Source of the DNA: a virus
DNA: 32,253 bases
Reading direction: 5' to 3' (one strand)
IMG/VR virus record: IMGVR_UViG_3300009499_000172
The notes below the pieces were generated by a model. The model had not been told where the DNA came from, did not search any database, and saw only the letters and a program-made list of their open reading frames with translations. Both the position numbers and the translations under genes were made by a program. Of this stretch, positions 305-29,374 are shown piece after piece. Position 1 is the first letter of the stretch, and every line of letters begins with the position of its first letter.

Positions 305-796
305 TTAAGTTCTCCGCGTCTGCTGTTTCCGCCATTCATGCGCTTGGATTCGTCTATAAAGACTAATGATTCTATCGATATCGATGTCGCTTACTTTTCG
401 CTTCTTCAATACAGACTTAATTATGTTTTTTGAATTTGAGATGAGAATGTTGATTGCTTCTTCCCACACACGGTCATCTGATGCATTATTCAAACGAGCG
501 CAGGCCTGCTTGTAAAGCTTACGCTTAAGCTTTCGATACATACGCATCGACCTGATGCTCTTATCGACGGCTTTAACGTGCATTAGAACATCACGCGGTG
601 AGTCATTGTAGAGTGTTGGAAATGGTACAGTGTATGACACATCAAGGTTCAACAAGTACAGTATGACATTAACAAGCCGTCTTTTGTAAGGAGAAGATTC
701 ATGTATGGATTTGATGAAAGCATCCACGTGGATAATCTCCAAGTTGTTTACTAAAGCCGGCGTAGGCTTTTTCAACACCACAATAATTAATAACAA
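305..796 (-). CDS. hypothetical protein
   Basis: 163-aa minus-strand ORF in a co-oriented gene array. No recognisable motifs. Confidence 0.35.
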   Translation of the reverse strand: MLLIIVVLKKPTPALVNNLEIIHVDAFIKSIHESSPYKRRLVNVILYLLNLDVSYTVPFPTLYNDSPRDVLMHVKAVDKSIRSMRMYRKLKRKLYKQACARLNNASDDRVWEEAINILISNSKNIIKSVLKKRKVSDIDIDRIISLYRRIQAHEWRKQQTRRT

Positions 797-894
797 TCAC
801 TGCATCAATAACATCATCTTCGTCATTGTGTATGCAACGCCGGATTGATGATATCATTATACTAAACGATGAATAACGATATCACAACGTAAAT

Positions 895-1191
895 TCAGAC
901 GATTCCATTACCATTACATTCGACACACTGTTCATTTGACCCGCTGATGCTACAGCTTTCACAGTCTTTACCAAACGTCTCTTTGACTGAGATGATTGAC
1001 CTGACTGTACTGACGTCTTCGATTAGCTCATCAATCATCTTGAGCTTCGTCGTCAGAATGAGATGCTCTGTGCTTCTCATTGCAGGAAACATAGGGCTTC
1101 TCGTTAGGACCTCACGTGCCTCAACTAGCTCTAGCTGTTCTGCCAACAGCTTTCTCTTTCTAAGAACAATCTCTTCAAACAGCTCTACCAT
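895..1191 (-). CDS. hypothetical protein with C-terminal Cys cluster
   Basis: 98-aa ORF with C-terminal CESCS...CVECNGNG. Abuts the downstream gene. Confidence 0.3.
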   Translation of the reverse strand: MVELFEEIVLRKRKLLAEQLELVEAREVLTRSPMFPAMRSTEHLILTTKLKMIDELIEDVSTVRSIISVKETFGKDCESCSISGSNEQCVECNGNGIV

Positions 1192-1766
1192 GTCAGCTGT
1201 CCCCTACGAAGCATTTGAATGAGCTCATCTGGCGACATCCTCTTTGCATTTGCTGGTAAAAGCTCCTCAGCACTCACGTTGTATGGCCACGCAAGAAGCA
1301 CAGCAAACCCATTCGGATTATCAGTTGCCCACTCAATGATGTTCTTCGGTTTGTCATCGACAAAAAAGTCTGCGGCGACCCATGGTTTCAATCGACCCGC
1401 CATCAGCTGGCCCTGGTGGATTCCAAGCTCTCTGCGGAGCCACTCAACACGAGCATCATACCATCCCTTGGATTCCCAAGGAGACGTTAGGACCATGACA
1501 TCACCGAGCGCAAATGATAGCTGAACAAGCTCTTTCGCCCATGGCAGCTGTGGTTGTGTTCGCGTAAAATCGTTGTCAGAGCATATGGCATCTGCTTTTC
1601 TGGCAACATCCTTACCAAACCTTGCACGAAGCACATTGCGAAGGCTAAAGTCATCAACATCGTCAACGCTGAGCTCAATGCCAAGTCTCTTGATGACGTA
1701 TGCTGTCCATTCCGCTAGAACGCCATCGCAATCAAGAGCTATGCGTTTTCTACGTTGGATGCTCAT
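1185..1766 (-). CDS. HAD-superfamily 5'(3')-deoxyribonucleotidase-like phosphatase (NT5C-type)
   Basis: HAD motif I IALDCDGVLAEW (DxDGV), a motif II Ser/Thr (MVLTSPW), and motif III/IV FFVDDKPKN. The ORF track gives 1185..1784. The internal ATG at 1766 overlaps the upstream gene's stop as ATGA, so I take it as the likelier start. Confidence 0.6.
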   Translation of the reverse strand: MSIQRRKRIALDCDGVLAEWTAYVIKRLGIELSVDDVDDFSLRNVLRARFGKDVARKADAICSDNDFTRTQPQLPWAKELVQLSFALGDVMVLTSPWESKGWYDARVEWLRRELGIHQGQLMAGRLKPWVAADFFVDDKPKNIIEWATDNPNGFAVLLAWPYNVSAEELLPANAKRMSPDELIQMLRRGQLTW

Positions 1767-2032
1767 ACAACACCTAAAACCCATGCTGGAACAATGACGA
1801 ATCGCCCATCAGACAGTTTAATGTGCATGCTATTCTCTTTTCCACTCTGCTTGATATGACATATTATCGTGCCTCGTGTGTTGATATCAACATTTTTCAT
1901 GAACTTCAATTCTTGTGTAGAAAGAGGCGTCTGTGTAAAAACGTACCCACACTCACGACCACGCACCGACACATCAAGTGCAGAATAACGAAACACAACG
2001 TCAGACCCGACGTCAAACATGCATGTCCTCAC
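1763..2032 (-). CDS. hypothetical protein
   Basis: 89-aa ORF whose stop is coupled (ATGA) to the downstream start. No family recognised. Confidence 0.35.
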   Translation of the reverse strand: MRTCMFDVGSDVVFRYSALDVSVRGRECGYVFTQTPLSTQELKFMKNVDINTRGTIICHIKQSGKENSMHIKLSDGRFVIVPAWVLGVV

Positions 2033-2244
2033 AAACGTCTTGTGATTCGACCCTTCGAAAGCTCATACGGAGACAGAGCGACCTCGACCCTATCACCGAC
2101 GACAATCTTGATGCTATAGACGCGCATCTTTCCAGCGAGGTATGTCGTAGCGTCCTGCCCTGAGTCAAGCTTCACCTTGAACCTGCTTCCTGGTAGGATG
2201 TCGATTATCGTTCCTGTCGAAATGATGTCTGTATCTGCGGGCAT
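2029..2244 (-). CDS. infA: translation initiation factor IF-1 homologue (S1-like OB fold)
   Basis: The 71-aa sequence aligns along its full length with bacterial IF-1: GTIIDILPGSRFKVKLDSGQ...AGKMRVYSIKIVVGDRVEVALSPYELSKGRI versus E. coli [20 protein letters not shown]...[31 protein letters not shown]. Confidence 0.85.
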   Translation of the reverse strand: MPADTDIISTGTIIDILPGSRFKVKLDSGQDATTYLAGKMRVYSIKIVVGDRVEVALSPYELSKGRITRRL

Positions 2245-2261
2245 ATTTTTGCTTCTATCTC

Positions 2262-2603
2262 TTAATCAGCACCGTCATCGCCGACGGGTTCGTTGTTGGT
2301 GATTGGTTCTCGCGTATTTCGAAAAATCTTAAATGCTGGTAATCCTGATTCACTATCATACTCGATATCGACCTGTGCAATGCAGCCATGAAGTATCGCT
2401 AAAACATCACCGTTCTCCTTGATGACAGCGACATCGCCCGGTAGCGTGTCGTAATCGACAGACACAAATCCTCTTTCTCCCTCTTTCACACTCACAAACC
2501 TAGCCTGTTGTAAAGAGCTTATCACACGACATGATACTGTGCGTAATATCTCGACGTAAGTTCCATGTTCAAATAGCATTTGTAATCCTTGAAGCACAAT
2601 CAT
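2262..2603 (-). CDS. hypothetical protein
   Basis: 113-aa ORF in the co-oriented array. Confidence 0.35.
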   Translation of the reverse strand: MIVLQGLQMLFEHGTYVEILRTVSCRVISSLQQARFVSVKEGERGFVSVDYDTLPGDVAVIKENGDVLAILHGCIAQVDIEYDSESGLPAFKIFRNTREPITNNEPVGDDGAD

Positions 2604-2642
2604 AACATAGCGATTGTGTCGTTATCAACACATAGGCATTTA

Positions 2643-3281
2643 CTATTTCATCAATCGTCGTTGCATCAAAAGCATGAACAGACCGACGACAGCAATGACA
2701 AGCACAACCAGCGCATACACCCAACCGAACAAAAGGCAAATGACTGCAGGCGTAATAAGACCCATGTACCATTGTGTGATAATCATCTTGTCTAGATGCT
2801 GTACGTGTGGCTTATCACTGTGCATGTGCATTATGGTGGCCAACGTCATCCGTCCTCCGTCAAGCGGGTATAAGGGAAGGATGTTTCCAAAAAAAATGAA
2901 CACAAGATTCAACATCGCAACGTTAAAAACAAACTCAACTGGAAACAACACGTATGACATGAACAAGATGACAGACGCTAGCAATGATGCTAGTGGCCCA
3001 GCAACAGCGACATCAAACTGAGTTTTCGGTGATGCAGACGATAACATCGATATCAAAGTAGCAGCTCCGACGAAGTTGAGTGCTATGTTATGCACGGCTA
3101 GCCCATGTCGCTTTGCAGCAAGAAAATGACCGAGCTCATGTATGAACACTAACGTAATGCAAACAACATACAGCAAAAAAAACTGCAATCCGACTGCACC
3201 AGCGATGCATGCTAACATGATGACTGATGCATCGATGCTGACTGCCGTCTCTCCAATCGAAAAAATGCGATAACGGGTCAT
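2643..3281 (-). CDS. M50-family site-2 protease-like integral membrane metalloprotease
   Basis: HExxH in a TM helix (FIHELGHFLAAKRHG), a downstream LDGG motif (PLYPLDGGRMTLA) and multiple hydrophobic segments. This is the short SpoIVFB/RseP core architecture. Confidence 0.75.
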   Translation of the reverse strand: MTRYRIFSIGETAVSIDASVIMLACIAGAVGLQFFLLYVVCITLVFIHELGHFLAAKRHGLAVHNIALNFVGAATLISMLSSASPKTQFDVAVAGPLASLLASVILFMSYVLFPVEFVFNVAMLNLVFIFFGNILPLYPLDGGRMTLATIMHMHSDKPHVQHLDKMIITQWYMGLITPAVICLLFGWVYALVVLVIAVVGLFMLLMQRRLMK

Positions 3282-3487
3282 TTTTGATACCTTTCAGAGA
3301 TGTTTTGACCGATTGATTGCAGTATGTTCTCATGCGTAGCAGCCAAAATGTAATCAAGCGCAGTTGAGAGTTGAACATCAATCTTTGAACTTAAGGCTTT
3401 TGCTAGCACGTATCGTGGGCACGGCCCGATATCATGACTGAGTTTGAGAATTGTGGCGATGTGTTTTTTTGGAACGCGCTGTTTCAT
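3278..3487 (-). CDS. hypothetical protein
   Basis: 69-aa ORF with ATGA overlap to the upstream gene. Confidence 0.3.
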   Translation of the reverse strand: MKQRVPKKHIATILKLSHDIGPCPRYVLAKALSSKIDVQLSTALDYILAATHENILQSIGQNISERYQK

Positions 3488-4176
3488 CTTCTTGATGCCT
3501 TTTTCTTTTTCTTTTTCGTCTGCGTACGAGGAGCATGCCCTGAAATTGCACTCAATATCTCAATCGCAACATTCAACCTAGCATCCTCAGAAAGCTCTTC
3601 GTCGATGATGAGCTCTTCAAGAGTCGGCGTATCAAAAAAACGTGCAGCATCACCCAGTTTGACAGCTTCATTCAACATCGTCTGTTCATTCAGTAGCATA
3701 CGTTGTCGTTCGATGCATTCGCCCAGGCTAGCTGTGATGATATCCAAACGACGCTCAACGGCTCTCGTAGTCATTTTACTGATGTCAGCAGCCAACAGTC
3801 TTATCACGTTTGACTCAGCCCTAGCTCTCAACTGATTGGGTATATCATTGAAAATGACGAATGCATACTCAGTAAAATCTGGGTCATCTAAAAGCTTTTT
3901 AGCAAGAACGTTCGGTTTGATACATATGCGAACGCGACGGGCGGCTGTCTTAAACCTCAGATACTCTGATGCAGCAGCGCAAGGGATAACATCGATTCCA
4001 GAATCCTGCAGGTCATCGACCGCGCGCCAAAATTCACGTGTTGCACCGATGACAAGACGATGTTTTTTAAAGAATGAAAGAGCCTTCACAAGTCCAAAGA
4101 CACATGCACCCGTTTCTATAAGTTTATTCAGGCTTACAGTCCTCTCAACTCTTTTTGAGATAGACGCATTCATCAT
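3484..4176 (-). CDS. hypothetical protein with C-terminal poly-Lys tail
   Basis: 230-aa ORF. The C-terminus QTKKKKKKASRR is encoded by an (AAAAAG)x3 repeat. Confidence 0.4.
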   Translation of the reverse strand: MMNASISKRVERTVSLNKLIETGACVFGLVKALSFFKKHRLVIGATREFWRAVDDLQDSGIDVIPCAAASEYLRFKTAARRVRICIKPNVLAKKLLDDPDFTEYAFVIFNDIPNQLRARAESNVIRLLAADISKMTTRAVERRLDIITASLGECIERQRMLLNEQTMLNEAVKLGDAARFFDTPTLEELIIDEELSEDARLNVAIEILSAISGHAPRTQTKKKKKKASRR

Positions 4177-4224
4177 TTTTTATCTTAAAACAACTATCAT
4201 ACATGTTGCATTACAAAAGCAATC

Positions 4225-4893
4225 TCATTTTCTTAATGAAATGACCCTTGCACGAAGCCCAGCCTTATCAGCACGCTTCGTTGCATTCATCTTGAGCCGA
4301 ACGTTATACTCTTCATCAGGGTCGATGTGATTGACGACGCCAGCAACACGAATCTCGTCGCTGAGCTCAATCATGTTTCCGTTCAACATGACCAGCGTGC
4401 CCTTTGCGATGGTAAAAATCATTCTCTTCGATGATGGTTCGTTATCATAGACGAGCATCGAGCCCGCATAAATCACCTCTGTACCATCTGGTACGTCGAT
4501 GATATCCTGTCGGTTCGTACGACGACTGAGTTGGTATGAACAGCTCGTTGAGTGTTGCTTTGTCGGTTGTAGGCCAAGCGTTGCTGTCACATTTAGCTTA
4601 TCACCGACAACATACCTCTTATTACGCTCTTTGCTACGCTGGGGTTGTTTCATCTGTGTCGAATGATGTAGCCTGTTGATTGTTGATTGCGCTGTCTCTA
4701 GAACAGACAACTGGAATAGCTCTCCTTGTCCGAGGTTCGGCTTAAGAAGGGCGTTATGTATCGCATCATTGACGACAGACCTTACGTCCTGACTTACGTC
4801 GCGTAGGTGCAGTTGCACAACATCTGCGATTGACGCATTTGGTTGTGCGATGATGTCTTCAATCACTGCCTTGATGATGTCAGTTGCATGCAT
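4225..4893 (-). CDS. hypothetical protein
   Basis: 222-aa ORF with no recognisable motifs. Confidence 0.4.
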   Translation of the reverse strand: MHATDIIKAVIEDIIAQPNASIADVVQLHLRDVSQDVRSVVNDAIHNALLKPNLGQGELFQLSVLETAQSTINRLHHSTQMKQPQRSKERNKRYVVGDKLNVTATLGLQPTKQHSTSCSYQLSRRTNRQDIIDVPDGTEVIYAGSMLVYDNEPSSKRMIFTIAKGTLVMLNGNMIELSDEIRVAGVVNHIDPDEEYNVRLKMNATKRADKAGLRARVISLRK

Positions 4894-4935
4894 ATCGCTA
4901 CATTAACACGACTTCAACGATGCATGCACAACGTA

Positions 4936-5286
4936 TCATGCCTCTTCTCCAATGAGACCATCAGGAGAGATATCCTTTACAATTGACGCATCGACGCGCT
5001 GTGCAACAAGATTGATGAGCATCTCAAGCATCTCAGGATTAGGTGTGATTCCTGCAGCACGAAGCAAGTTCAATGCAAGACCACGCATCAGCGCACAACG
5101 ACCCTGGTCTGGGTCATTGATGAATGATGAGATAAACTTTTCGCTATCATTAAATGCCTGCTCGACAAGCGCAACTGGTGCACGATTATCACCCAAGAAA
5201 AACAACCATGGGATTACACGGAACAGCGTCGCAACATCATACGCCGTCTTATCAAGCCTAAGCTCGCTATCATCATCAAAGCTCAT
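4936..5286 (-). CDS. hypothetical protein
   Basis: 116-aa ORF. Confidence 0.35.
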   Translation of the reverse strand: MSFDDDSELRLDKTAYDVATLFRVIPWLFFLGDNRAPVALVEQAFNDSEKFISSFINDPDQGRCALMRGLALNLLRAAGITPNPEMLEMLINLVAQRVDASIVKDISPDGLIGEEA

Positions 5287-5528
5287 TCTTCTATCCTAGA
5301 GAGTAACTTGAAGTGTGTCAAATCATAACGAAAACAGACCTGCTCATCAAACAAAAAATAGTATTTGTTCGCTACTACACTCTTTTCAACGCAAAGCAAC
5401 AGAAACACTCCATGTGATTTTTCATCGTCGCTATCAACACTTACAACAATACCAAAGCCATCATCAGCTTCGCTTTTCCGCACTGGAAACATACATGTCA
5501 GGACGTCATTGACTCTAAACTTTTTCAT
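5283..5528 (-). CDS. hypothetical protein
   Basis: 81-aa ORF coupled to its neighbours. Confidence 0.3.
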   Translation of the reverse strand: MKKFRVNDVLTCMFPVRKSEADDGFGIVVSVDSDDEKSHGVFLLLCVEKSVVANKYYFLFDEQVCFRYDLTHFKLLSRIEE

Positions 5529-5826
5529 TTTTTACATCAACGAGCATTACATCGTCGAACAGACCAAGACGTCGTGCAAGCTCAGGTTGATTGAGCATCA
5601 GCATGTCTGCTGCTTCATCACCTATCCTTTCACGAAGGGGGCGTGCATCAACTGCATCATCATGCTTGACCCTTTGTGCAACCTCTAACCGTCTCGGATG
5701 ACCGAACACATCGAAATCAATGAAAAGCAACTCATGCTCTGAATGATGCTTTTCAAACTGCATCCTTCTGTATCTTGATATGTCTATGCACTTCATTTCT
5801 TTGAGATTCCCACTTTTTGTTTCCAC
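5515..5826 (-). CDS. hypothetical protein
   Basis: 103-aa ORF. Confidence 0.35.
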   Translation of the reverse strand: METKSGNLKEMKCIDISRYRRMQFEKHHSEHELLFIDFDVFGHPRRLEVAQRVKHDDAVDARPLRERIGDEAADMLMLNQPELARRLGLFDDVMLVDVKNEKV

Positions 5827-6242
5827 AGCTTGAGCTCTGCATTGTACTTCTTGAGTGAAGCATAATACTCATGCCACTCATCAAACGACTTCTGTACTAG
5901 TTGGGCCTCTACAACCTCGTCAAAATCGGGATTGGGCGCTGAAACATACGCAACGATGTTAAAGATGCCATCATAGTTTGTGTCGTATTTGAATGTAATG
6001 AAGCACTCGTTTGCATCGAACTTCGATGCAGCAGCAATGACGTCCGAGACTTTGATGGGTTCAAGCTCATTACAATTGGGTATGGGTATGTTTATGAACT
6101 TATCTTTTCCCACATACTTTGCTGGTTGCACTGGAGCGACCGGCTTAGGATTTTCCTTGATGAAACCTTCAAGCTTTTCTCTACGTTTAATTTCACGTTT
6201 AAGCTCATCCAACGACGCATCTTTAAGATTTTTCATAATCAA
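5793..6242 (-). CDS. hypothetical protein
   Basis: 149-aa ORF whose stop overlaps the RNA ligase gene. Confidence 0.4.
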   Translation of the reverse strand: MIMKNLKDASLDELKREIKRREKLEGFIKENPKPVAPVQPAKYVGKDKFINIPIPNCNELEPIKVSDVIAAASKFDANECFITFKYDTNYDGIFNIVAYVSAPNPDFDEVVEAQLVQKSFDEWHEYYASLKKYNAELKLWKQKVGISKK

Positions 6243-7435
6243 CCCTCATCGACGAAAGATGTAGAACCAAGCTTCTCTAGACCCTGTTTCTTCAGGAGTC
6301 GAAGCTGTGCAACGCTGATGTCTAATCGCATCGCATCTCTGATTTCAGACGCCTTCTCTATCTCACCGACAGCCCTACTGATTGCATACGCAAAACAACC
6401 GTCATGACCAACGCACTGTAAGTCTTCATCAAGCTGTTTACACGCCAACGCAATCTCTTTACGTGTCTGCAGTTCCATGATGCGTCTCGTGAGAATCTCA
6501 GACTCAACACGCTCAATCAATTCATCGACACGTGATACATTGGAAGAGATTTCATCCCACAGTGGCTCCATGTATGAACACACCTCCCAATCGAATCCCT
6601 CTTTGAGGAGGGTGTTCTTAAGACCATCAAGCGTTGATACGTCATTAAGATAGCAGAACTCCTTTAGGTAGCGTGGAGTAGCCTGCGACCTCAACGCATG
6701 AAGACGCATGTACCATGCGCTCTTGAGTTTAGAAAGATGATAGTTTCCATCACCCACATGCGTCCAAACGACGATGCCCTCCTTATCATCGAACGCAGAG
6801 ACACGCTGCCTGAGCACGTCTATGTCTGATGCAACATCATCATGATTATCGATGCAATCAACGTTGAAAACATTCTCAACCATTCTCCTGACACGAAGCT
6901 CTCCGCTTGACCAATCAGAGTATCCAAGGCCTATCAGGCGCGGTTCATCATAGCGAACGACTATCTGGTTCGACGGAGCAACGTACTCCATCAGGAAAGA
7001 CTGTTTTTCATGAGAAAGCTTTGCATCCAACAGGCGTGGATACCTCGACGCGATGAGACTACGAACGGCTGAATCCATGTCTGATGCTATCGTCTCACAG
7101 CCGCGCGTTCTAAAATGAACATGACCGTCGATGACAGACCTGATAATCAGGGAGCCGTCGGCCTTCCCAGGAAAATGTGAAATGCCCCTGTTGATGCCGT
7201 CAATGACAATGGAGTCATGCGCAGGCCTCTCAGAGAAATTGAAGAACTTCGGAAACCCTGCACTCACAACCTCGCCGTCTGGGCGACACAGGAGCGAACG
7301 AAGATGAAGCTCTTTCTCGTCCCACTCCCACATGGCCTTGTGTGGTACGATGAGAACGAAATCACCGATGCCGGTGATGCTTCTTGGGTTGATATGAAAT
7401 CTCTCTAAATCAAGAGAACCGATATCGATTTTCAT
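6239..7435 (-). CDS. ATP-dependent RNA ligase, T4 Rnl1-like nucleotidyltransferase
   Basis: Motif I KxDGS (FPGKADGSLI), motif III (FLMEYVAPS), motif IV (DKEGIVVW) and motif V (LSKLKSAWY, compare T4 Rnl1 HFKIKSDWY). The start ATG is preceded by GGTGA. Confidence 0.75.
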   Translation of the reverse strand: MKIDIGSLDLERFHINPRSITGIGDFVLIVPHKAMWEWDEKELHLRSLLCRPDGEVVSAGFPKFFNFSERPAHDSIVIDGINRGISHFPGKADGSLIIRSVIDGHVHFRTRGCETIASDMDSAVRSLIASRYPRLLDAKLSHEKQSFLMEYVAPSNQIVVRYDEPRLIGLGYSDWSSGELRVRRMVENVFNVDCIDNHDDVASDIDVLRQRVSAFDDKEGIVVWTHVGDGNYHLSKLKSAWYMRLHALRSQATPRYLKEFCYLNDVSTLDGLKNTLLKEGFDWEVCSYMEPLWDEISSNVSRVDELIERVESEILTRRIMELQTRKEIALACKQLDEDLQCVGHDGCFAYAISRAVGEIEKASEIRDAMRLDISVAQLRLLKKQGLEKLGSTSFVDEG

Positions 7436-7453
7436 CGCTTATCACCGTCCTTC

Positions 7454-7491
7454 ATTCAACGTCTTTATCCACATGATTAACGTGGTGTGTA
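7454..7491 (-). repeat. 38-nt conserved intergenic element, copy B (33/38 identical to 9323-9360)
   Basis: Plus strand attcaacgtctttatccacatgattaacgtggtgtgta. Minus-strand reading: TACACACCACGTTAATCATGTGGATAAAGACGTTGAAT. It overlaps the stop of ORF 7477..7683 and ends 18 nt before the RNA ligase start (ATG 7433-7435). Confidence 0.6.
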
Positions 7492-7683
7492 TGTGACCCA
7501 ATCACGAGGAGCCATCCTACTAAGGAGCTCCCTGATGTCAAGCAACACCTCGAGCTGGAGGCGTGCAGCGCACATGACATCATCATGCGAATCATGGTTC
7601 AATCGCTTGACGCGACCATACTCTGGGTCATACTTTCCCTCAAGTGACTCAAGTTCACCGATGATATCATCCTTGCTTCTCAT
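7477..7683 (-). CDS. hypothetical protein
   Basis: 68-aa ORF. Its 3' end is embedded in the repeated element. Confidence 0.3.
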   Translation of the reverse strand: MRSKDDIIGELESLEGKYDPEYGRVKRLNHDSHDDVMCAARLQLEVLLDIRELLSRMAPRDWVTYTPR

Positions 7684-9322: not shown

Positions 9323-9360
9323 AATCAACGTCGTTATCCACATGTTCAACGTGATGTGTA
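9323..9360 (-). repeat. 38-nt conserved intergenic element, copy A
   Basis: Plus strand aatcaacgtcgttatccacatgttcaacgtgatgtgta. It ends immediately 3' of the stop of ORF 9361..9606. Confidence 0.6.
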
Positions 9361-9606
9361 TCATCGCCGAAAGATTAATCTGATGCTTGCATCACCGACG
9401 TGCCCAACGACGTTCCATCCGATGGCGATGAAATGTTCGACGATGATTGTGCATCGTGCAGAGTCGAGTGGAAGCACAAGCACCCTTCCATCGATGAGCT
9501 CGTTCGGTGCCCATGTTGTCTCAAGCCATGCAGTCGCATCAGACACGATAGAAGACATCGACGGTCTCATAGTTGGATACAACGCATCCATCTCTTCTGG
9601 TGTCAT
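9361..9606 (-). CDS. hypothetical protein
   Basis: 81-aa ORF. Confidence 0.3.
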   Translation of the reverse strand: MTPEEMDALYPTMRPSMSSIVSDATAWLETTWAPNELIDGRVLVLPLDSARCTIIVEHFIAIGWNVVGHVGDASIRLIFRR

Positions 9607-9866
9607 TGCTCTTTCTTCTTTGTCCTGCGCTTCATGTCGATGTAAAGCCTATCAGTCTGCTGCTTTGAACCGATGACGACGAATGACACGTATCCGCTGT
9701 TGACGAGCGTACGCTGCACAAGCCTGCTTGTGAGAGGTGAGCCACCCGTGAAATCGAACGAAACGAATGATTCGTTCTTCGCTGTCGCCTCACGGATGCG
9801 GTCTGGGATGGTGCGAACGATTTTCATCGCATCTTCACTCGGGTCTTCATCAAGCAACCTAGACAT
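9603..9866 (-). CDS. hypothetical protein
   Basis: 87-aa ORF. Confidence 0.3.
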   Translation of the reverse strand: MSRLLDEDPSEDAMKIVRTIPDRIREATAKNESFVSFDFTGGSPLTSRLVQRTLVNSGYVSFVVIGSKQQTDRLYIDMKRRTKKKEQ

Positions 9867-10137
9867 CGTCTATCCTTCTAACAATATCCAGGTTGCTTGA
9901 GTACGTAATCGCCCTCGACGTGTCAAACAGAACGATGACGAGGTCATGGTTTATTGTCGGGTCGCCGTCGATGATGATGCCGAGCTTGTTCTTTGAGATT
10001 GGTGCAGTGCTAGATGAATAGTCTGCTGCCAACAACGGCGTCTCATGTGTGCTTGAGTCGATATGAGCATGGCCCACAACAATGAGTGGAGCAATCGCTT
10101 GTACAAGGTCTCCGCTTGAAAATGCCACCATGTTCAT
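9859..10137 (-). CDS. hypothetical protein
   Basis: 92-aa ORF. Confidence 0.3.
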   Translation of the reverse strand: MNMVAFSSGDLVQAIAPLIVVGHAHIDSSTHETPLLAADYSSSTAPISKNKLGIIIDGDPTINHDLVIVLFDTSRAITYSSNLDIVRRIDDV

Positions 10138-10172
10138 AATAATGCATCAGGGTCGGTATCGTCAATGTGAGA

Positions 10173-10586
10173 CTAATCTTCTTTAAGCTCTAAAGGTTCA
10201 AATGCATCCCAATCGAATGTTAGTGCATCTCCACAGATGATGTTGTGTTCAACAATCTTCACCCATTGTTCATTTCTTTCTTCATTGGAGCTTTCTTCTG
10301 CTTGTTTTAAGAGCCTTTCACGACATTCATCGATATTGTCTTGCATGATGTCAATACCGAATGTGGTGTTGAGGGCCTGTGTGGGTGTTAGGCCGGCTTC
10401 TATCTTTCGCTTGATGGCTTCGACAAGAAAGTTACCGTTGCCACAGCCTGTAATGTCGCCGATTGTCCATGTTGCGTCTGACCAATATGCACAAGGCCAC
10501 ATGTCTAGCATTTGGTGAACTATTCTTATGGGAGTAAAAACTTCACCAAGTTGAAATGCACGAAGTTTTGTTCTCATGTAAACCAT
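10173..10586 (-). pseudogene. truncated N6-adenine MTase-like ORF (motifs X, I, II, III only; no NPPY/F motif IV)
   Basis: GEVFTPIRIV (motif X), DITGCGNGNFLVEA (motif I), FGIDIMQD (motif II) and GDALTFDW (motif III), then a stop. Nothing downstream supplies the catalytic motif IV. It overlaps the upstream MTase stop by 13 nt. Confidence 0.45.
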
Positions 10587-11950
10587 TCTTTCATTTGCAT
10601 TTCTCGCTCATCAACGTCGTCAGACAATAGATGAGATATATCAGGAATTACACCATGTAAAGTAGTGATTGGTCTAACACCTTGATGAAATGCAACAATT
10701 AGTTTCTTAATGATACTATGCTTAATAAACCACTCATGTTTTTCAACATTACGAACAGCAACAACAAAAACTCTACCTCCACCCACGTCTAAACAAGCAC
10801 AATTATCAATTTTTTCACTATAAATTAGTTCTTGAAACGGTACTTTTTCTCTTTTGCCCATAAAACCGTGATATAATACAACACTTTGATATCCTTCATT
10901 TCGTTTTTTTGATAGAAAATTTTCAAATTTTTTATTATGTTTACATTTTTTTTGCTCTAAGACAAACATAGTTGTACCACTTCCACCATCCCACAAAATA
11001 TGCTTATCTTCAACATTAAGAATGTCTTTCTTATTTCGAAATTCACGAGCTTGTTTTTGAGTCTTGTATGAAACACATAAAGATGTACATTCACTAGTTT
11101 CGATTTTTTTTGGGTCAAACAATTCGATTGCACCGTACTTGTTGACTAACAACGCAGCTTTTTCTTGAATCACAACATCTAGTGTGTTATCTAAACACAA
11201 CAACCCATCAATAATGGGTCTTTCTTTATTATTAAGTAAATACTTTGTTGCTATTTGCCCATTCTTTTTAAGAGAAAGTGTCAATATCTCAACATCAATA
11301 CCTTTCCACTCTGGAGGTCGCTGAATTATGTTAATTTTAATTGAATCACCAGCTTCAGCTATTACTTTTTTCCTAAGAGCTGAGCTAGCATTCATAGCCC
11401 AATTTCTAGGCATTAGTTGCACCAACATCCCAGAGTTAGATAAGCTATCTATAGCCTTAATTATAAATTCTTCATAAAGATTTTCTTTACCAGAAATAGA
11501 AAATGGTGGATTTCCAGCAACAATGTCATACTTCACACTATCATTATAACTCAAAAAGTCCTGTTTGATTATAATGTTTTCGACGTCAATATCGACAAGC
11601 TTTGCTAGAGTATATAGTGCTTGCCGTGCACGATGTAGCTGTGCTTCATCGACATCAAACCCACGTATTCTAGCAAAACATTTGCTAAGTCTTTTTTTAT
11701 CATCTGGAATGGCGTGTCGCATCCCATAGTACATCCGTCGTACTGCCTCAAGTAAGAAACCACCCGAACCACAAGTTGGATCAAGCAGCGTTTTAGACGG
11801 ATTGCACCAAAAATTTCTCTCTATTCTCATCATCTTTCTGATAATATAGAGTGGTGTGGTGGTATCAGTACTATCTGAGAATTGCTGCTCTCTGAATAAA
11901 GATGCACTCTTAATCTTTTGATGGACCCGAAAATGATCTTGATAGTTCAT
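10574..11950 (-). CDS. N6-adenine DNA methyltransferase, gamma class (Eco57I/TaqI-like), with C-terminal target-recognition region
   Basis: Motif X TTPLYIIRKMM, motif I LLDPTCGSGGFLLEA, motif IV DIVAGNPPF. The gene is very AT-rich (local GC about 30-35% versus about 45-50% in the flanks). ATGA overlap with the upstream helicase gene. Confidence 0.85.
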   Translation of the reverse strand: MNYQDHFRVHQKIKSASLFREQQFSDSTDTTTPLYIIRKMMRIERNFWCNPSKTLLDPTCGSGGFLLEAVRRMYYGMRHAIPDDKKRLSKCFARIRGFDVDEAQLHRARQALYTLAKLVDIDVENIIIKQDFLSYNDSVKYDIVAGNPPFSISGKENLYEEFIIKAIDSLSNSGMLVQLMPRNWAMNASSALRKKVIAEAGDSIKINIIQRPPEWKGIDVEILTLSLKKNGQIATKYLLNNKERPIIDGLLCLDNTLDVVIQEKAALLVNKYGAIELFDPKKIETSECTSLCVSYKTQKQAREFRNKKDILNVEDKHILWDGGSGTTMFVLEQKKCKHNKKFENFLSKKRNEGYQSVVLYHGFMGKREKVPFQELIYSEKIDNCACLDVGGGRVFVVAVRNVEKHEWFIKHSIIKKLIVAFHQGVRPITTLHGVIPDISHLLSDDVDEREMQMKEWFT

Positions 11951-14421
11951 TTATCCCGCGCATCCCGCGCATTGATCTGGCTGTTGATCTCATCAATTCG
12001 CTTCTGCAATGCACTTTTGACGATGAAGTTATTCTCTATCCACTTCTTAAAGATCAAATATTGGCACTTCGTCATCGTCTCAAACAGCTTCTGGTGTTCT
12101 GGTGATATATCGATGAAGTCACGAACATAATGAATGGTGACACGTTTATAGGTACAACCAATGAATTGGGGAAGACGTCTCAAGACATCTTTCGCCTTCT
12201 TAATCAATTCATTAATCCTTATTTTCTCAGCTGCTTTTTCATCAAATGACTGAATTATTCCAGCTACACGCTCATTTGATTTACCTGTCTCAACACCATT
12301 ACATGCGATAGAAAGCTCTCTGGATTTTGGGGCTGTTTTCTTCGAAGCTGCAGGCAGATTATCTGATGTATCTAATATCTGTAATGCATTTTTCTCATTG
12401 AACTCTGAACTAGATACTGATTGTAGCGTTTTGCCATTTTTACAAGAACTAACATGACCTTGAGCAAGTGTTTTCATATCCTTCTCAGACAAAGGCTGGA
12501 GTTCGAAACTTGAACCGCTAGCATTTATGAGATTTAGACAACTCATGAGCTTAACGCACTTACCTTCAGTGCTTTGATCAGAGGCCTTGGTGTAACGAGC
12601 AAGGTCAAAACAGACTTTGATATTTCTCTCAGGGTGCAAATCGATGATGAGCCTCTTGCTATCTTTTCTGTTCGACTTACCCGGTGACATCGCCCTAAAC
12701 CAAACCTGGACGTTCTTTTCAGCAGTCATGACTGACCATGCTACGATGACACATGTGAGGTTCCAGAATGTCGCTCCCAATCCGTACCTACCGCAGGTTA
12801 AGATAATCGTCGTTTTATCATAATGCTCATTATATCGCAGTTTGTAGTTAACATCGTCGATAGATGGACAATCGCTGCCCGCGACCGAGAGACATTCAAC
12901 ATTTGGTATATTGTCCTCTAGCAAAGCCTTCATCGCCTTACATTGTGCGACCTCATCGAGTGTAATCAATATTGTTTTATGTTTCTGTAACTCTTTCCCT
13001 AATGTCCAGACGTCTCTGGAAGGTCTCAGAAGTCTCAGAGGTTCAGGCTCACTGCTTTTGCCAAAAAGACGCATAAACAGTTTTTTGATGTCATCCGAAT
13101 GCTCAAACACATCGTCGTTCTTCTTCATGACGAAGAACTTCTGCAATGAAAAATGACCCTCGTCGTCAAAGCGATTATGTGCTTCAACAAGTTCGTTAGT
13201 GAATTTGCATGTTACAAGAGTAGATTTATCATAGAGTTTATCCTGACGTGCAGCTTCAATATCATACTCATACTTCTCGCTTGTATTCTTGTCAAATGTA
13301 GCAATCTCCCTAAAGTTTGTACCTGATGAATGGATGATAAAGGGAGGGCTTTCTCGTTCTTCTAGAGACTTAATTAGACCAGCGATGTTAGTGTACGCAT
13401 CCTCATCATCTATCTTATCGATCCCGATATGGCTTTCGTCGGCGATCACAACTTCTGAGTTATAATCATGCGTGATATATTCCTGAATATCAAGAGATGC
13501 ATCTGCCTTCTGTCCTGACACAAAAAGCAGGACACGTAATCCTTTGCTTTCTGCTAAACGAACATCTTCCTTTACATCATCAAGTGACTTACCAGCTGCC
13601 TTTATGAACGCATATCCAGACTCTTCTGCATCACGCTTCCATGATGCCTCAATGCTTGTCGGAACAACAGCAATGACCAACAACCTCTTGACCCCCGAAC
13701 TCGATGCAAAGACTAAACATACTAGTGTCTTACCTGATTGTGGTACAACGCATAAAATGAATTTTTTTTTACTTCCGTTGTACGCTTGTCGCATCTTTTC
13801 GAGAGCAGACTTCTGCCATTCACGTAATTTTAGGTGCTCTTTGACTTTAGCACTACACAATTTTGAATATGCATAAGCTTTTGCTTGCTCGACCATAAGG
13901 TCTTGTAAGCGATCGAAACCATATGCATGTGATTTCTCTTTATCGATTAAGAGTGAATATGGAAAGAAAGTACGCAACTGTTCTGTACCAGCTTTATTGT
14001 AGTCTTCAGTGTTAGAACGATTTTCTTGTTCTCTGATAAGAAAACAACCATTCTTCTTAAGATGTTCGATGAATGGCTTATCGGGGTTACTACATGATTT
14101 AGCATCTTTTGCGATCTTTTTAGGAAAAAGAAAAATTCCAATTGCTTTACCACCCGGTGAAGCTGTGTGATAATTCTTAAATCTTTTGTGCACGTTTTCA
14201 GACATGCCTACCTTAAAATCTACAGCAAGCTTATCATCGGTGCTAGCCGCTGACTTAAAGTCATTAACGTCGGCACGGGCATAAATTACATCATGTGTTT
14301 CATATATTGAAGACCCTTCTTTAACTAAATCCCATCCTTTGCTCCATTCGAGCTCTTCACACGATCCATCCTCATTGAAACGAAGAAATAGTGGGTTTGT
14401 GTCAAAAATTTGTTCATTCAT
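11947..14421 (-). CDS. SF2 helicase/ATPase with N-terminal GIY-YIG-like (T5orf172/MUG113-type) domain; putative restriction-like nuclease-helicase
   Basis: N-terminal region KVGMSENVHKRFKNYHTASP...EQLRTFFPYS resembles the T5orf172 domain. Walker A VVPQSGKT, Walker B/DExH VVIADESH, SGT-like motif IIHSSGTNF. Translationally coupled to the MTase. Confidence 0.65.
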   Translation of the reverse strand: MNEQIFDTNPLFLRFNEDGSCEELEWSKGWDLVKEGSSIYETHDVIYARADVNDFKSAASTDDKLAVDFKVGMSENVHKRFKNYHTASPGGKAIGIFLFPKKIAKDAKSCSNPDKPFIEHLKKNGCFLIREQENRSNTEDYNKAGTEQLRTFFPYSLLIDKEKSHAYGFDRLQDLMVEQAKAYAYSKLCSAKVKEHLKLREWQKSALEKMRQAYNGSKKKFILCVVPQSGKTLVCLVFASSSGVKRLLVIAVVPTSIEASWKRDAEESGYAFIKAAGKSLDDVKEDVRLAESKGLRVLLFVSGQKADASLDIQEYITHDYNSEVVIADESHIGIDKIDDEDAYTNIAGLIKSLEERESPPFIIHSSGTNFREIATFDKNTSEKYEYDIEAARQDKLYDKSTLVTCKFTNELVEAHNRFDDEGHFSLQKFFVMKKNDDVFEHSDDIKKLFMRLFGKSSEPEPLRLLRPSRDVWTLGKELQKHKTILITLDEVAQCKAMKALLEDNIPNVECLSVAGSDCPSIDDVNYKLRYNEHYDKTTIILTCGRYGLGATFWNLTCVIVAWSVMTAEKNVQVWFRAMSPGKSNRKDSKRLIIDLHPERNIKVCFDLARYTKASDQSTEGKCVKLMSCLNLINASGSSFELQPLSEKDMKTLAQGHVSSCKNGKTLQSVSSSEFNEKNALQILDTSDNLPAASKKTAPKSRELSIACNGVETGKSNERVAGIIQSFDEKAAEKIRINELIKKAKDVLRRLPQFIGCTYKRVTIHYVRDFIDISPEHQKLFETMTKCQYLIFKKWIENNFIVKSALQKRIDEINSQINARDARDK

Positions 14422-14451
14422 AGCTTTATTTCTTAAGTTCTACACAGACAG

Positions 14452-14489
14452 ATGAAAGAGATGACATCAGAAGACATCATCTCTTTCAT
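14452..14489. repeat. perfect 13-bp inverted repeat (ATGAAAGAGATGA / TCATCTCTTTCAT) with 12-nt loop
   Basis: Read directly from the sequence. It lies in the 88-nt spacer between the RadA-like gene and the AT-rich helicase-MTase island. No flanking U-tract on either strand. Confidence 0.7.
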
Positions 14490-14509
14490 AACCGACAAGA
14501 CTTAATAGC

Positions 14510-28280: not shown

Positions 28281-28541
28281 TCAGACGTTCGTCTTTGATA
28301 CCCTTGTGTCGTATATCTCATGAAGATATGAAACAACGAGGTTCTGAAATGATTGTGACGCTGCCAGCTCGGCTGGGTCGCCTGTTAGGCCGTACGTACC
28401 CATCAACGCGATCGCAAACTTTTCCATGACCCTCAAAACAACGTTCCTCACGGTCGAATGACCACATGGCTTATCGTTAAGCGTCATGATGTCTGCTATC
28501 ATCCTGTAGTCCATCCCTTCACCCATATCATCAATTCTCAT
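28281..28541 (-). CDS. small protein with sigma-70 region-4.2-like helix-turn-helix
   Basis: [37 protein letters not shown] resembles sigma70 DYTLEEVGKQFDVTRERIRQIEAKAL. The ATG overlaps the sigma gene stop (ATGA). Confidence 0.4.
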
Positions 28542-29374
28542 ATTGCGACCCCCGTCGATGCATTCTCAAGCATTCGAAGCTCTTTGTGTGTGATTGGAAA
28601 CCTGACATCATCTGTCGGGTCCTGCACGATTCCAAACCTAAGCACGAGGATTGCAGTCTCACGTGGAGTCAGTGAATCCAACACCTGTGATATTTTCGAT
28701 ATAAGCTCTTTTTTGTCGAACATGTCAAACGGAGACAGAGAGTCATCATCTGGAATGACATCACGCAACGTCTTTATTGACCCAGCGTCATGCGACCTAC
28801 CCACCTCAGCGTCGATTGATACGACGTATGGTGTTCCGCTCAATGCCGTCGATACAGTCGTCTCTGTGATTCCAAGTAACTCAGCAAGCTCAGCACGTGT
28901 GGGCTCTTGACCATGAAGTTCAATGAACTCATCACGTGCTGAGCTTAGCTCAGCAAGGACAGAGCCATTCCTACCTGGGACGCGAATTGTTCGACCCTGG
29001 TTCGCGATGAACCGACCGACGGCCTGACGAATCCACCACGATGCATACGTTGAAAACCTGAAGCCGCGGCGCCAGTCGAACTTATCAACAGCCTTCATCA
29101 GACCGACATTACCCTCAGCAATCAGGTCTTCAAGGTCACAACCCCTGTTCTGTTGTGTCTTTGCGATTGAAACGACCAATCTGAGATTGGACTCAATCAT
29201 TTTTTGCTTGGCACGTTTTTGTTCGTGCAATGACACGGGTTGCGTGCTTCCGTCTGGAAGCACCAACGTTCCCTCAATCTTCTGTGAAAGCTCAATCTCT
29301 TGCTCTTTTGTCAAGAGCTTGCGGCGGCCTATCTGCTTCAAGTAGATGCTAAGGCCCTCTGGCGATTTTCTCAC
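28538..29374 (-). CDS. sigma-70 family RNA polymerase sigma factor (regions 1.2, 2, 3 and 4; no region 1.1)
   Basis: [54 protein letters not shown] matches regions 2.1-2.4 almost residue for residue. Region 4.1 [15 protein letters not shown], region 4.2 [18 protein letters not shown] start with AGGAG 6 nt upstream. Confidence 0.85.

Follow-up and report, generated by a model that had tools for sequence, protein, structure and literature searches.

The subject of this work is a three-gene cassette in a 32,253-nucleotide (nt) stretch of viral DNA, IMG/VR virus record IMGVR_UViG_3300009499_000172. We call this whole stretch the window. The cassette occupies positions 10173-14421 and its three open reading frames (ORFs), like nearly all long ORFs of the window, lie on the minus strand. 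They encode a protein of 824 amino acids (aa) that pairs a predicted nuclease-type domain with a helicase-like motor, a 458-aa DNA methyltransferase (MTase), and a small protein that resembles one half of an MTase. The small ORF has 137 codons (10173-10586), or 134 if translation starts at the ATG at 10577, and we use the shorter form below. Both gene junctions are ATGA overlaps, GATAAATGAAC and TTTACATGAGA.

A sequence-only reading of the window had described the same ORFs, their ATGA coupling and an AT-rich, compositionally foreign island at this place, and our calculations agree. Base composition is not uniform across the window: GC content is 0.387 in the cassette and 0.481 in the remainder. 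The block lies close to the minimum for all segments of 4,249 nt, the global minimum being 0.386 at 10243, and the lowest value for a segment of this size that does not overlap the cassette is 0.441. At third codon positions GC is 0.25 for the MTase, 0.385 for the helicase and 0.378 for the small ORF, and 0.57 and 0.67 for the two flanking genes. Related contigs carry other inserts between these flanking genes. We refer to the inserts as alleles, that of the window being allele A.

The three proteins of the cassette

The 824-aa protein matches Pfam ResIII and has every motif of a superfamily 2 (SF2) ATPase: Q203, G230-K231-T232, D328-E329-S-H331, S366-G-T368 and Q572/R576. Alignments with 46-57 remote relatives show these positions to be invariant or almost invariant. 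A word-based homolog search returned the protein itself only, PHROGs and NCBIfam gave no match, and phmmer against PDB found nothing, with no sequence-level match to the Type ISP enzymes LlaGI and LlaBIII. An exhaustive hidden Markov model (HMM) search with HMMER recovered 85 remote relatives. The AlphaFold2 (AF2) model has a predicted local distance difference test score (pLDDT) of 74 and is confident at residues ~200-660 and 728-824 and poor for the first 195 residues. Foldseek matched it to Snf2 remodelers, LlaBIII (a Type ISP enzyme; rank 2, E 3.6e-10), HsdR of EcoR124I, SauUSI and ZorD. In addition, the family profile matches the Type I R subunit HsdR 3h1t (E 4.9e-13; E-values obtained from small local databases, here and below, are only relative).

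The sequence-only reading had assigned this protein a T5orf172 domain joined to a DExH helicase. The helicase part is borne out directly, while the T5orf172 part holds by transitive homology. On the protein itself PF10544 (T5orf172) scores 14.7 bits, below the Pfam cut-off of 20, and spans residues 61-91 only. Significant PF10544 matches are found in 12 of 47 relatives, and the N-terminal consensus of the family matches PF10544 end to end (E 1.4e-13). A family N-terminal profile built without the window's sequence, scored with the HMMER bias filter off and with a shuffle control, gives 18.5 bits on residues 43-139, which none of 500 shuffles reaches (maximum 8.5). Residues I46-Y47 (IY47), K70-V-G72 and R80 align with the domain, and H119 is also listed. 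The putative catalytic Glu is E139 or E147; its position shifts between alignments and AF2 confidence is low there.

A C-terminal PD-(D/E)xK domain, which the sequence-only reading had also suggested for this protein, did not materialize. Pfam found no PD-(D/E)xK domain at either end, and residues 728-824 are modelled as helical. The relatives offer a different view of this region. In 14 of the 47 an Eco57I-type MTase is part of the same chain, in the order nuclease-motor-MTase, and these single chains measure 1,100-1,250 aa. For the fused relatives P0008 and P0010, the region aligned to 728-824 runs on into motif X/I of the MTase, so that by position the segment would be coupler-like. The C-terminal helical domain of the 824-aa protein probably docks onto the MTase, because it is covalently continuous with the MTase in these fused relatives.

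The 458-aa protein has the motifs of an N6-adenine MTase in gamma order: X (TTPLYII), I (LLDPTCGSGGFL), II (IRGFDVD), III (IKQDFL) and IV (GNPPF). Three Pfam families exceed their cut-offs (UPF0020, 41.5 bits; N6_Mtase, 28.9; Eco57I, 29.3) and the best PDB sequence match is M.TaqI. The earlier assignment to the gamma class, with a variable region of its own, holds. By Pfam the protein is not MmeI-like, as MmeI_Mtase (PF20473) scores 16.3 bits with a cut-off of 27. All ATPase and MTase catalytic motifs of the cassette are intact.

The N-terminal half of the MTase is closest to the MTase parts of the fused T5orf172-helicase-MTase relatives, and homology to the MTase of allele B begins exactly at GNPPF, with 54% identity onward. 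This could suggest a chimera of a donor N-half and a resident C-half joined at GNPPF. That suggestion is weakened, because the fused relative P0069 resembles both halves. A distant homolog with 30% identity, P0004, lies on a contig (ENA ERZ23495296 scaffold_2807) that also encodes an Arf/Ras-type small GTPase and may derive from a eukaryotic virus or a eukaryote.

The 134-aa protein carries motifs X (GEVFTP), I (GDITGCGNGNFL), II (FGIDI) and III (NIICGDAL) and stops before motif IV, just as the sequence-only reading had noted. The AF2 model, with a pLDDT of 91.4, consists of three strands and helices, one half of the Rossmann fold of an MTase. In structure it is near to the MTase domains of MmeI (the top match), DrdV, CamA, BrxX/PglX, LlaGI/LlaBIII and BsaXI. 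The family is large: we found 2,233 homologous clusters, consisting almost wholly of stand-alone proteins 120-190 aa long, and at least 371 IMG/VR contigs carry a relative. Residues that contact S-adenosylmethionine (SAM) are invariant in every class of partner. Among alleles A, B and E the ratio of nonsynonymous to synonymous substitution rates (dN/dS) of the small gene is 0.18-0.20, at a synonymous divergence (dS) of 0.22-0.57. Selection maintains the 134-aa protein as a conserved partner, and its gene is not a decayed one.

This bears on the way the small ORF had been read before, as a truncated and decayed second MTase beside a novel R-M-like (restriction-modification-like) or host-takeover module. 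The absence of motif IV and everything after it, next to a large MTase with the full motif set, speaks for this reading. The candidate is refuted by purifying selection at substantial dS, by the invariant SAM residues, by the size of the family and by its constant position after the MTase, and the confident fold argues the same way. We now consider the decayed-gene version of the module very improbable. A second candidate, that the 134-aa protein supplies the N-half lacking from the large subunit of a split MTase of beta order, is true of relatives and not of the window. Here the protein is not needed to complete the fold, because the 458-aa MTase has its own motifs X-I-II-III.

The module in other viruses and bacteria

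In order to see how these genes are arranged elsewhere we examined 59 non-redundant IMG/VR loci with enough upstream sequence, using crude ORF calling, home-made HMMs and regular expressions. At 47 of the 59 an NPPY-bearing MTase is adjacent to, or fused with, the small domain. The large subunit comes in several types. It has an N-terminal extension with no detectable motifs X-I at 18 loci and its own X-I half, as in the window, at 14, twelve of which also have the helicase family of the window. At eight loci helicase and MTase are completely fused into one chain of 1,000 aa or more, and a small ORF still follows. At five the large subunit begins at motif IV, with no helicase nearby, and at two it is fused to the small domain in beta order.

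The trio itself recurs. Three distant contexts have a DEAD/ResIII helicase, then an Eco57I-type MTase of ~413-431 aa, and directly after it the small protein. When the search was started from two non-fused helicase relatives, the identical trio was found both times. The genes of the trio overlap, from helicase to MTase to small ORF. Across versions of the module the motor is accompanied by two non-homologous nuclease-type domains, either T5orf172 or a PD-(D/E)xK-like domain.

Other loci carry tandem arrays of two to five large-subunit paralogs followed by a single small ORF. The catalytic parts of the paralogs are 61-74% identical and their C-terminal parts 20-43%. The invariant SAM contacts in all classes, together with the one small ORF per array, suggest a small partner that is shared and obligatory. 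One array, L067 (IMGVR_UViG_3300025139_000012, 448-7486), has five tandem MTase-large paralogs and one small-subunit gene, and by its sequence looks like a multi-specificity methylation array; L114 and L100 are further examples. MTase plus small-subunit modules that have no helicase include this array and all five loci at which the large subunit begins at motif IV.

Two of the relatives show what the small module can do. The 290-aa large subunit at locus L034, which has a 132-aa small partner, starts at MKFDVVVGNPPF, which is motif IV, and gp189 of Aeromonas phage CC2 joins both parts in one chain, with NPPY near the start (residue ~10) and X-I-II-III at the C-terminal end. In both, the small module must complete the fold, because the large part begins at motif IV. 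A different arrangement is seen in Vibrio phage phi-ST2 (KT919973.1, 241073-244678), where a GIY-YIG domain is fused to the large MTase subunit (0371, 552 aa) and the small subunit (0372) follows. There is no helicase at this locus, and its genes lie inside a 7-deazaguanine (queuosine-precursor) cluster, beside a protein that by eye is DpdA/TGT-like.

The claim of the sequence-only reading that this layout fits no classical type of R-M system now looks overstated. In Type ISP enzymes the order is nuclease, SF2 motor, gamma MTase and target-recognition domain (PMC4666363). Like the window, they have an N-terminal nuclease-type domain, an SF2 double-stranded DNA translocase, a gamma N6-adenine MTase and a target-recognition part, and the linker between their motor and MTase may have its counterpart in helical residues 728-824. 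The structural comparisons point the same way, with LlaBIII the second-best match of the 824-aa model and the MTase domains of LlaGI/LlaBIII near the small protein. There are differences, however. A Type ISP enzyme is one polypeptide where the window has three, single chains being found only among its remote relatives. The nuclease of Type ISP enzymes is a Mrr-family PD-(D/E)xK domain, whereas that of the window is of the T5orf172 (GIY-YIG superfamily) kind. The conserved 134-aa half-MTase subunit has no Type ISP counterpart, and Type ISP enzymes are found on plasmids or chromosomes while the cassette lies in a lytic-looking huge phage. The cassette would work in the manner of a Type ISP enzyme and is not a member of the family, since it is not a single chain and has no Mrr nuclease.

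A catalogued model gives a second link to R-M. Seven of eight helicase-family relatives tested match PADLOC PDLC03626, a single-chain 'Type IIG restriction enzyme-methyltransferase' of ~1,359 positions. The fused relative P0010, for example, matches it over positions 336-1359 (E 3e-49). Split forms from gut bacteria, which have a half-MTase-like ORF of ~220 aa, also map onto this model. These are L155, L159, L198 and ~60 other bacterial loci (Bifidobacterium, Clostridia, Bacteroidales), where the ORF of this ~220-aa relative runs into the beginning of a complete gamma MTase of 512 aa, after which comes a protein of 834-951 aa. They are a split version with reversed gene order, because a single PADLOC Type IIG model covers the MTase and the large protein together.

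In 2009 Morgan et al. proposed trios of an MTase, a DEAD helicase and a GIY-YIG protein, as well as single-chain nuclease-helicase-MTase proteins, as probable though uncharacterised R-M systems; in the trios the MTase would provide the specificity and the other two proteins the cleavage (PMC2731913). One example of such a trio is the dnmA-yeeB-yeeC cluster, which coincides with a local dip in GC content and is regarded as a horizontal acquisition (PMC9973331). As in the window, the three activities share one operon. In that cluster, however, the MTase gene leads, and downstream of it helicase and T5orf172 have a gene each, whereas in the window T5orf172 forms the N-terminal part of the helicase protein, which is encoded ahead of the MTase. 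The MTase of the cluster is MmeI-like, that of the window is not by Pfam, although MmeI is the top structural neighbour of the small protein, and no small half-MTase partner has been described for the cluster. Judging by gene order, fusions and MTase type, the cassette is not a dnmA-yeeB-yeeC cluster.

Beta-class and split MTases invite a further comparison. Among the relatives, L034 and five IMG/VR loci consist of a large part from motif IV and a small part with X-I-II-III, and the beta order IV...TRD...X-I-II-III (TRD, target-recognition domain) occurs as one chain in Aeromonas phage CC2 gp189. The large subunit of the window differs in keeping an intact X-I-II-III of its own, in gamma order. 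Compared with the classical beta class, the small protein resembles the N-halves of gamma-type (HsdM/MmeI/Eco57I-like) enzymes in both sequence and structure.

A cultured example is in the T4-like cyanophage S-CAM7, where gp055-gp056-gp057 form an identical trio of overlapping genes for a 704-aa helicase, a 348-aa MTase and a 133-aa small protein. They are annotated as 'type II R-M restriction subunit', 'DNA methyltransferase' and hypothetical protein, respectively. By eye, the helicase motifs of gp055 resemble the helicase family of the window, and inspection reveals no recognisable T5orf172 N-terminus; the N-terminal half of gp056 is degenerate and has no canonical motif I. We found no experimental characterisation of this trio in the literature searched, and no description of the phage module or of a conserved half-MTase partner in the searchable literature. 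We rate the cassette as an apparently divergent variation on the nuclease-motor-MTase theme of R-M, carried by a phage and divided among three subunits, and as one member of a widespread and uncharacterised viral module.

A hypervariable locus in a huge-phage lineage

With the two flanking proteins as queries, a RadA-like protein of 277 aa and the product of a 92-aa ORF, exact-sequence look-up retrieved over 20 contigs from one huge-phage lineage, the longest of 122 kb, that have identical flanking proteins but different inserts. No relatives turned up when IMG/VR and JGI metagenomes were scanned for single-sequence patterns taken from the RadA-like flank and the small ORF, and megablast of the cassette region against 50,697 phage records gave no match.

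Allele A, with an insert of 4,372 nt, is present in three samples, ERZ27249619, JGI 3300024353 and SRR6056592. Allele B (L004, L005), from samples ERZ15185090 and ERZ28614686 and on contigs that stop just past the small ORF, encodes an unrelated 739-aa helicase, a 403-aa MTase with no canonical motif I, and a 134-aa small ORF. Judged by its motifs, the N-terminus of this helicase is PD-(D/E)xK-like, with only a weak NOV_C match. Allele E (L033), from sample SRR30296910, lies on an incomplete contig, with the helicase outside it; the C-terminal part of its MTase is 38% identical to that of A and 33% to that of B, and its flank has 95.7% nt identity. Many other contigs carry alleles C or D, inserts of 796-800 nt with one AT-rich gene (GC 0.36; ~249 aa) on the opposite strand that matches a PHROG 'homing endonuclease' family (E 2.4e-8). 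A difference in the length of a T-homopolymer, ~60 nt inside the 5′ end of this gene, distinguishes allele C (L007/L010) from allele D (L019/L022). The resulting frameshift in allele C shortens the product from ~249 to 165 aa in most contigs, which may reflect decay, phase variation or assembly error.

The C-terminal parts of the MTases of the three cassette alleles are 33-54% identical, while the flanks are 91-100% identical. The C-terminal region of the MTase diversifies far faster than the surrounding genome.

The junctions record some of the history of the locus (Table 1). Between the RadA-like gene and the cassette, the displaced homing-endonuclease-like gene has left its 3′ end, with the codons for its final 19 residues at 14446-14502 (tblastn, 100% over 19 aa). 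Allele B retains ~69 residues of the same gene, so the remnants are nested. A perfect 13-bp inverted repeat with a 12-nt loop (14452-14464 / 14477-14489) lies inside the remnant. It is not a classical terminator, because no T-run follows. The downstream junction contains a promoter-like TTGACG...TATTAT at 10165-10136; a promoter and terminator scan showed no enrichment. The cassette was horizontally acquired, as the alternative alleles between identical flanks demonstrate, and the remnant of the displaced gene indicates that a homing-endonuclease-like gene occupied the site earlier. Horizontal acquisition had also been the view of the sequence-only reading.

Table 1. Positions of the cassette, its domains, its junctions and its flanking genes in the window
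Feature	Position	Strand	Basis or remark
Whole three-gene cassette, allele A of the hypervariable phage locus	10173..14421	-	Lowest-GC block; flanks identical in >20 related contigs with other inserts
824-aa T5orf172-like + SF2 (DExH) translocase protein	11947..14421	-	Pfam ResIII; AF2 model; Foldseek; family profile
T5orf172-like (GIY-YIG superfamily) N-terminal domain, residues ~43-160	13942..14295	-	Leave-one-out family profile; family consensus
SF2 ATPase/translocase core, residues ~196-660	12442..13836	-	Invariant alignment columns; pLDDT mostly 85-95
C-terminal helical domain, residues 728-824	11950..12240	-	AF2 helices, pLDDT ~85
458-aa gamma-order N6-adenine DNA MTase	10574..11950	-	Pfam; motifs; M.TaqI
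MTase N-half, motifs X-I-II-III, residues 1-145	11516-11950	-	Motifs
MTase motif IV (GNPPF) onward and variable C-terminal, putative target-recognition part, residues 146-458	10577-11515	-	Motifs; allele comparison
134-aa half-MTase protein, motifs X-I-II-III	10173..10577	-	dN/dS; homologous clusters; AF2; neighbourhood
Remnant, 3′ end of displaced homing-endonuclease-like gene, 66 nt	14444..14509	+	98.5% nt identity to alleles C/D
Downstream junction, 36 nt common to all alleles	10138..10173	-	Immediately upstream of the ATG (10137) of the 92-aa gene
Upstream flank, outside the cassette: RadA/Sms-like P-loop ATPase, 277 aa	14510..15343	-	Identical across all alleles
Downstream flank, outside the cassette: 92-aa ORF	9859..10137	-	Identical across all alleles

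These observations raise the possibility of a selfish mobile cassette, whose T5orf172/GIY-YIG-type domain would cut cassette-free genomes at or near the locus while the MTase protects carriers, with spread by recombination during co-infection. The alternative occupant is an AT-rich, opposite-strand gene of a homing endonuclease family, as if the two competed for one site. The junctions are sharp and shared, the remnants are nested, alleles B and C co-occur in one sample, and every occupant of the locus is AT-rich. Nevertheless, the trio occurs in many unrelated genomic contexts with no obvious common target site, and homing needs no 2.5-kb translocase. We consider this explanation improbable. 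It concerns the mode of spread and would be compatible with an R-M mechanism, or with one in which methylation merely protects.

The polymorphism also speaks to whether the 824-aa protein might serve core replication or packaging, as a replicative helicase or a terminase-like ATPase. The cassette does adjoin the RadA-like ATPase and sits among DNA-metabolism genes. Yet it is absent from most genomes of the lineage, which carry the unrelated 0.8-kb gene instead, and Pfam, PHROGs, comparison of the family profile with structures, and Foldseek gave no terminase or DnaB similarity, the homology that the sequence-only reading had set against its own view. We reject the terminase and replicative-helicase readings, because the cassette is present or absent between near-identical genomes, and a core function seems to us scarcely credible.

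The wider setting is that of a phage. The window is contained in an 83.5-kb metagenome contig, ENA ERZ27249619 k141_271959, with phage-like gene content (a sigma-70 factor, a T4-type RNA ligase, DUF2201/VWA, an AAA_5 ATPase, an M50 peptidase and a Major-Vault-Protein-shoulder protein), and among catalogued genomes it comes closest to those of uncultured huge phages, 462-735 kb in size. The upstream flanking protein is RadA/Sms-like (TIGR00416, E 5e-20) and has a weak match to PADLOC mad8. Its gene is not part of the cassette, because it is conserved in all alleles.

Some further features of the window lie away from the cassette, all genes being on the minus strand. At 17492-20155 a protein of 887 aa combines the shoulder domain of the Major Vault Protein with Vault_3 repeats, here in a phage genome; its sole catalogued phage homologs, with 38-40% identity, are in the uncultured huge phages LR756500-LR756503. 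A 647-aa protein at 26024-27967 matches Pfam PF11617 (E 4.6e-33) with four copper-binding motifs of the MopE type, an unusual cargo for a phage. The sigma-70-type factor at 28538-29374 is full-length, with regions 1.2, 2, 3 and 4, and the phage therefore probably redirects host RNA polymerase. Finally, a 37-nt repeat is present on the plus strand in two copies (7456-7492 and 9325-9361) with 33 of 37 positions identical, and is possibly a regulatory element.

Function and evolution of the cassette

We favour, with moderate confidence, the reading that the cassette is a phage-carried, split, Type ISP-like enzyme, ATP-dependent and R-M-like, that would mark phage DNA and attack unmarked DNA. An R-M-like function, which the sequence-only reading had also proposed, is in our judgement the best explanation because of the Type ISP order, the fused relatives, the matches to PDLC03626 and the two nuclease-type domains found beside the motor. 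A part in host takeover, the alternative named in that earlier reading, is conceivable. In such an enzyme the 458-aa MTase would recognise a short DNA target through its fast-evolving C-terminal part and methylate the phage's own DNA. Type ISP enzymes hemimethylate an asymmetric site, and their cleavage depends on ATP-driven translocation and collision. By analogy with known enzymes, the 824-aa motor would translocate on unmethylated targets and the T5orf172 nuclease would cut the DNA of the host or of competing phages. The 134-aa protein may be a half-Rossmann, SAM-binding subunit: in the relatives that start at motif IV it would be the N-half of the MTase acting in trans, and in the window an obligatory partner that has been retained.

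Several points weigh against this reading. Methylation, cleavage and the contacts between subunits are all deduced. The T5orf172 domain is divergent, being below the Pfam cut-off and of low AF2 confidence with an ambiguous catalytic Glu. The cassette's own proteins fall below PDLC03626, and for the 824-aa protein PADLOC reported only PbeA (E 4e-7) at E <= 0.01. The B. subtilis dnmA-yeeB-yeeC cluster shows no restriction or anti-phage activity, although deletions of dnmA/yeeB homologs in Vibrio are reported to raise sensitivity to some phages (PMC9973331). A split Type ISP model also leaves unexplained why a complete MTase keeps a half-MTase partner. Lastly, methylation alone is a viable function, because MTase plus small-subunit modules exist that have no helicase.

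This last point leads to the main competing explanation, namely that the MTase and its small partner methylate phage DNA against host R-M or BREX-type defences and that nothing is restricted. The helicase-T5orf172 protein would then load the MTase or make it processive, as has been proposed for P1 DarB, or act in recombination. The helicase-free pairs and the arrays of up to five paralogs with divergent specificity regions are in keeping with this, as are the well-known phage-borne orphan MTases that guard against restriction (e.g. PMC4190342), the ties of T5orf172 to recombination contexts (PMC7824862) and the divergence of the nuclease-type domain of the window. Pure protection does not account well for a nuclease-type domain that is kept with the motor in two non-homologous forms, fused or adjacent, nor for relatives that match a catalogued restriction endonuclease-MTase model. 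The motor, moreover, is of the HsdR/ISP/Snf2 double-stranded DNA translocase type and not a replicative helicase. We hold protection alone to be unlikely, and prefer the split, Type ISP-like enzyme.

A more tentative proposal, possible though on the doubtful side, goes further. The 134-aa protein may be an obligatory SAM-binding subunit that acts in trans and can be shared among large MTases. It might complete the fold where the large subunit begins at motif IV, and where that subunit is whole it might activate or regulate it, or license the nuclease-motor. The family would then represent intermediates of a gamma-to-beta permutation, and the module an uncharacterised three-subunit class of ATP-dependent R-M used in conflicts between phages or between phage and host. 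The putative series begins with a complete gamma MTase plus an extra N-half, as in the window, and continues with a degenerate N-half plus the small subunit (allele B, S-CAM7). A large subunit from motif IV plus the small subunit (L034) would come next, and the fused, beta-order single chain of Aeromonas phage CC2 gp189 would be last, the route being duplication and truncation.

There is a practical consequence for the curators of viral genomes. Labels such as pseudogene or 'truncated methylase' should be avoided for the small ORF, whose presence flags the module.

If the favoured reading is true, large phages commonly carry a compact, swappable, ATP-dependent weapon of the R-M kind. Its specificity region would diversify between near-identical genomes, a phage-side counterpart of bacterial defence hot spots. 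The half-MTase partner would provide a natural and experimentally tractable system for trans-complementation of the DNA MTase fold, and the small-protein family may offer living intermediates of the long-discussed duplication-truncation route to the circular permutation of MTases.

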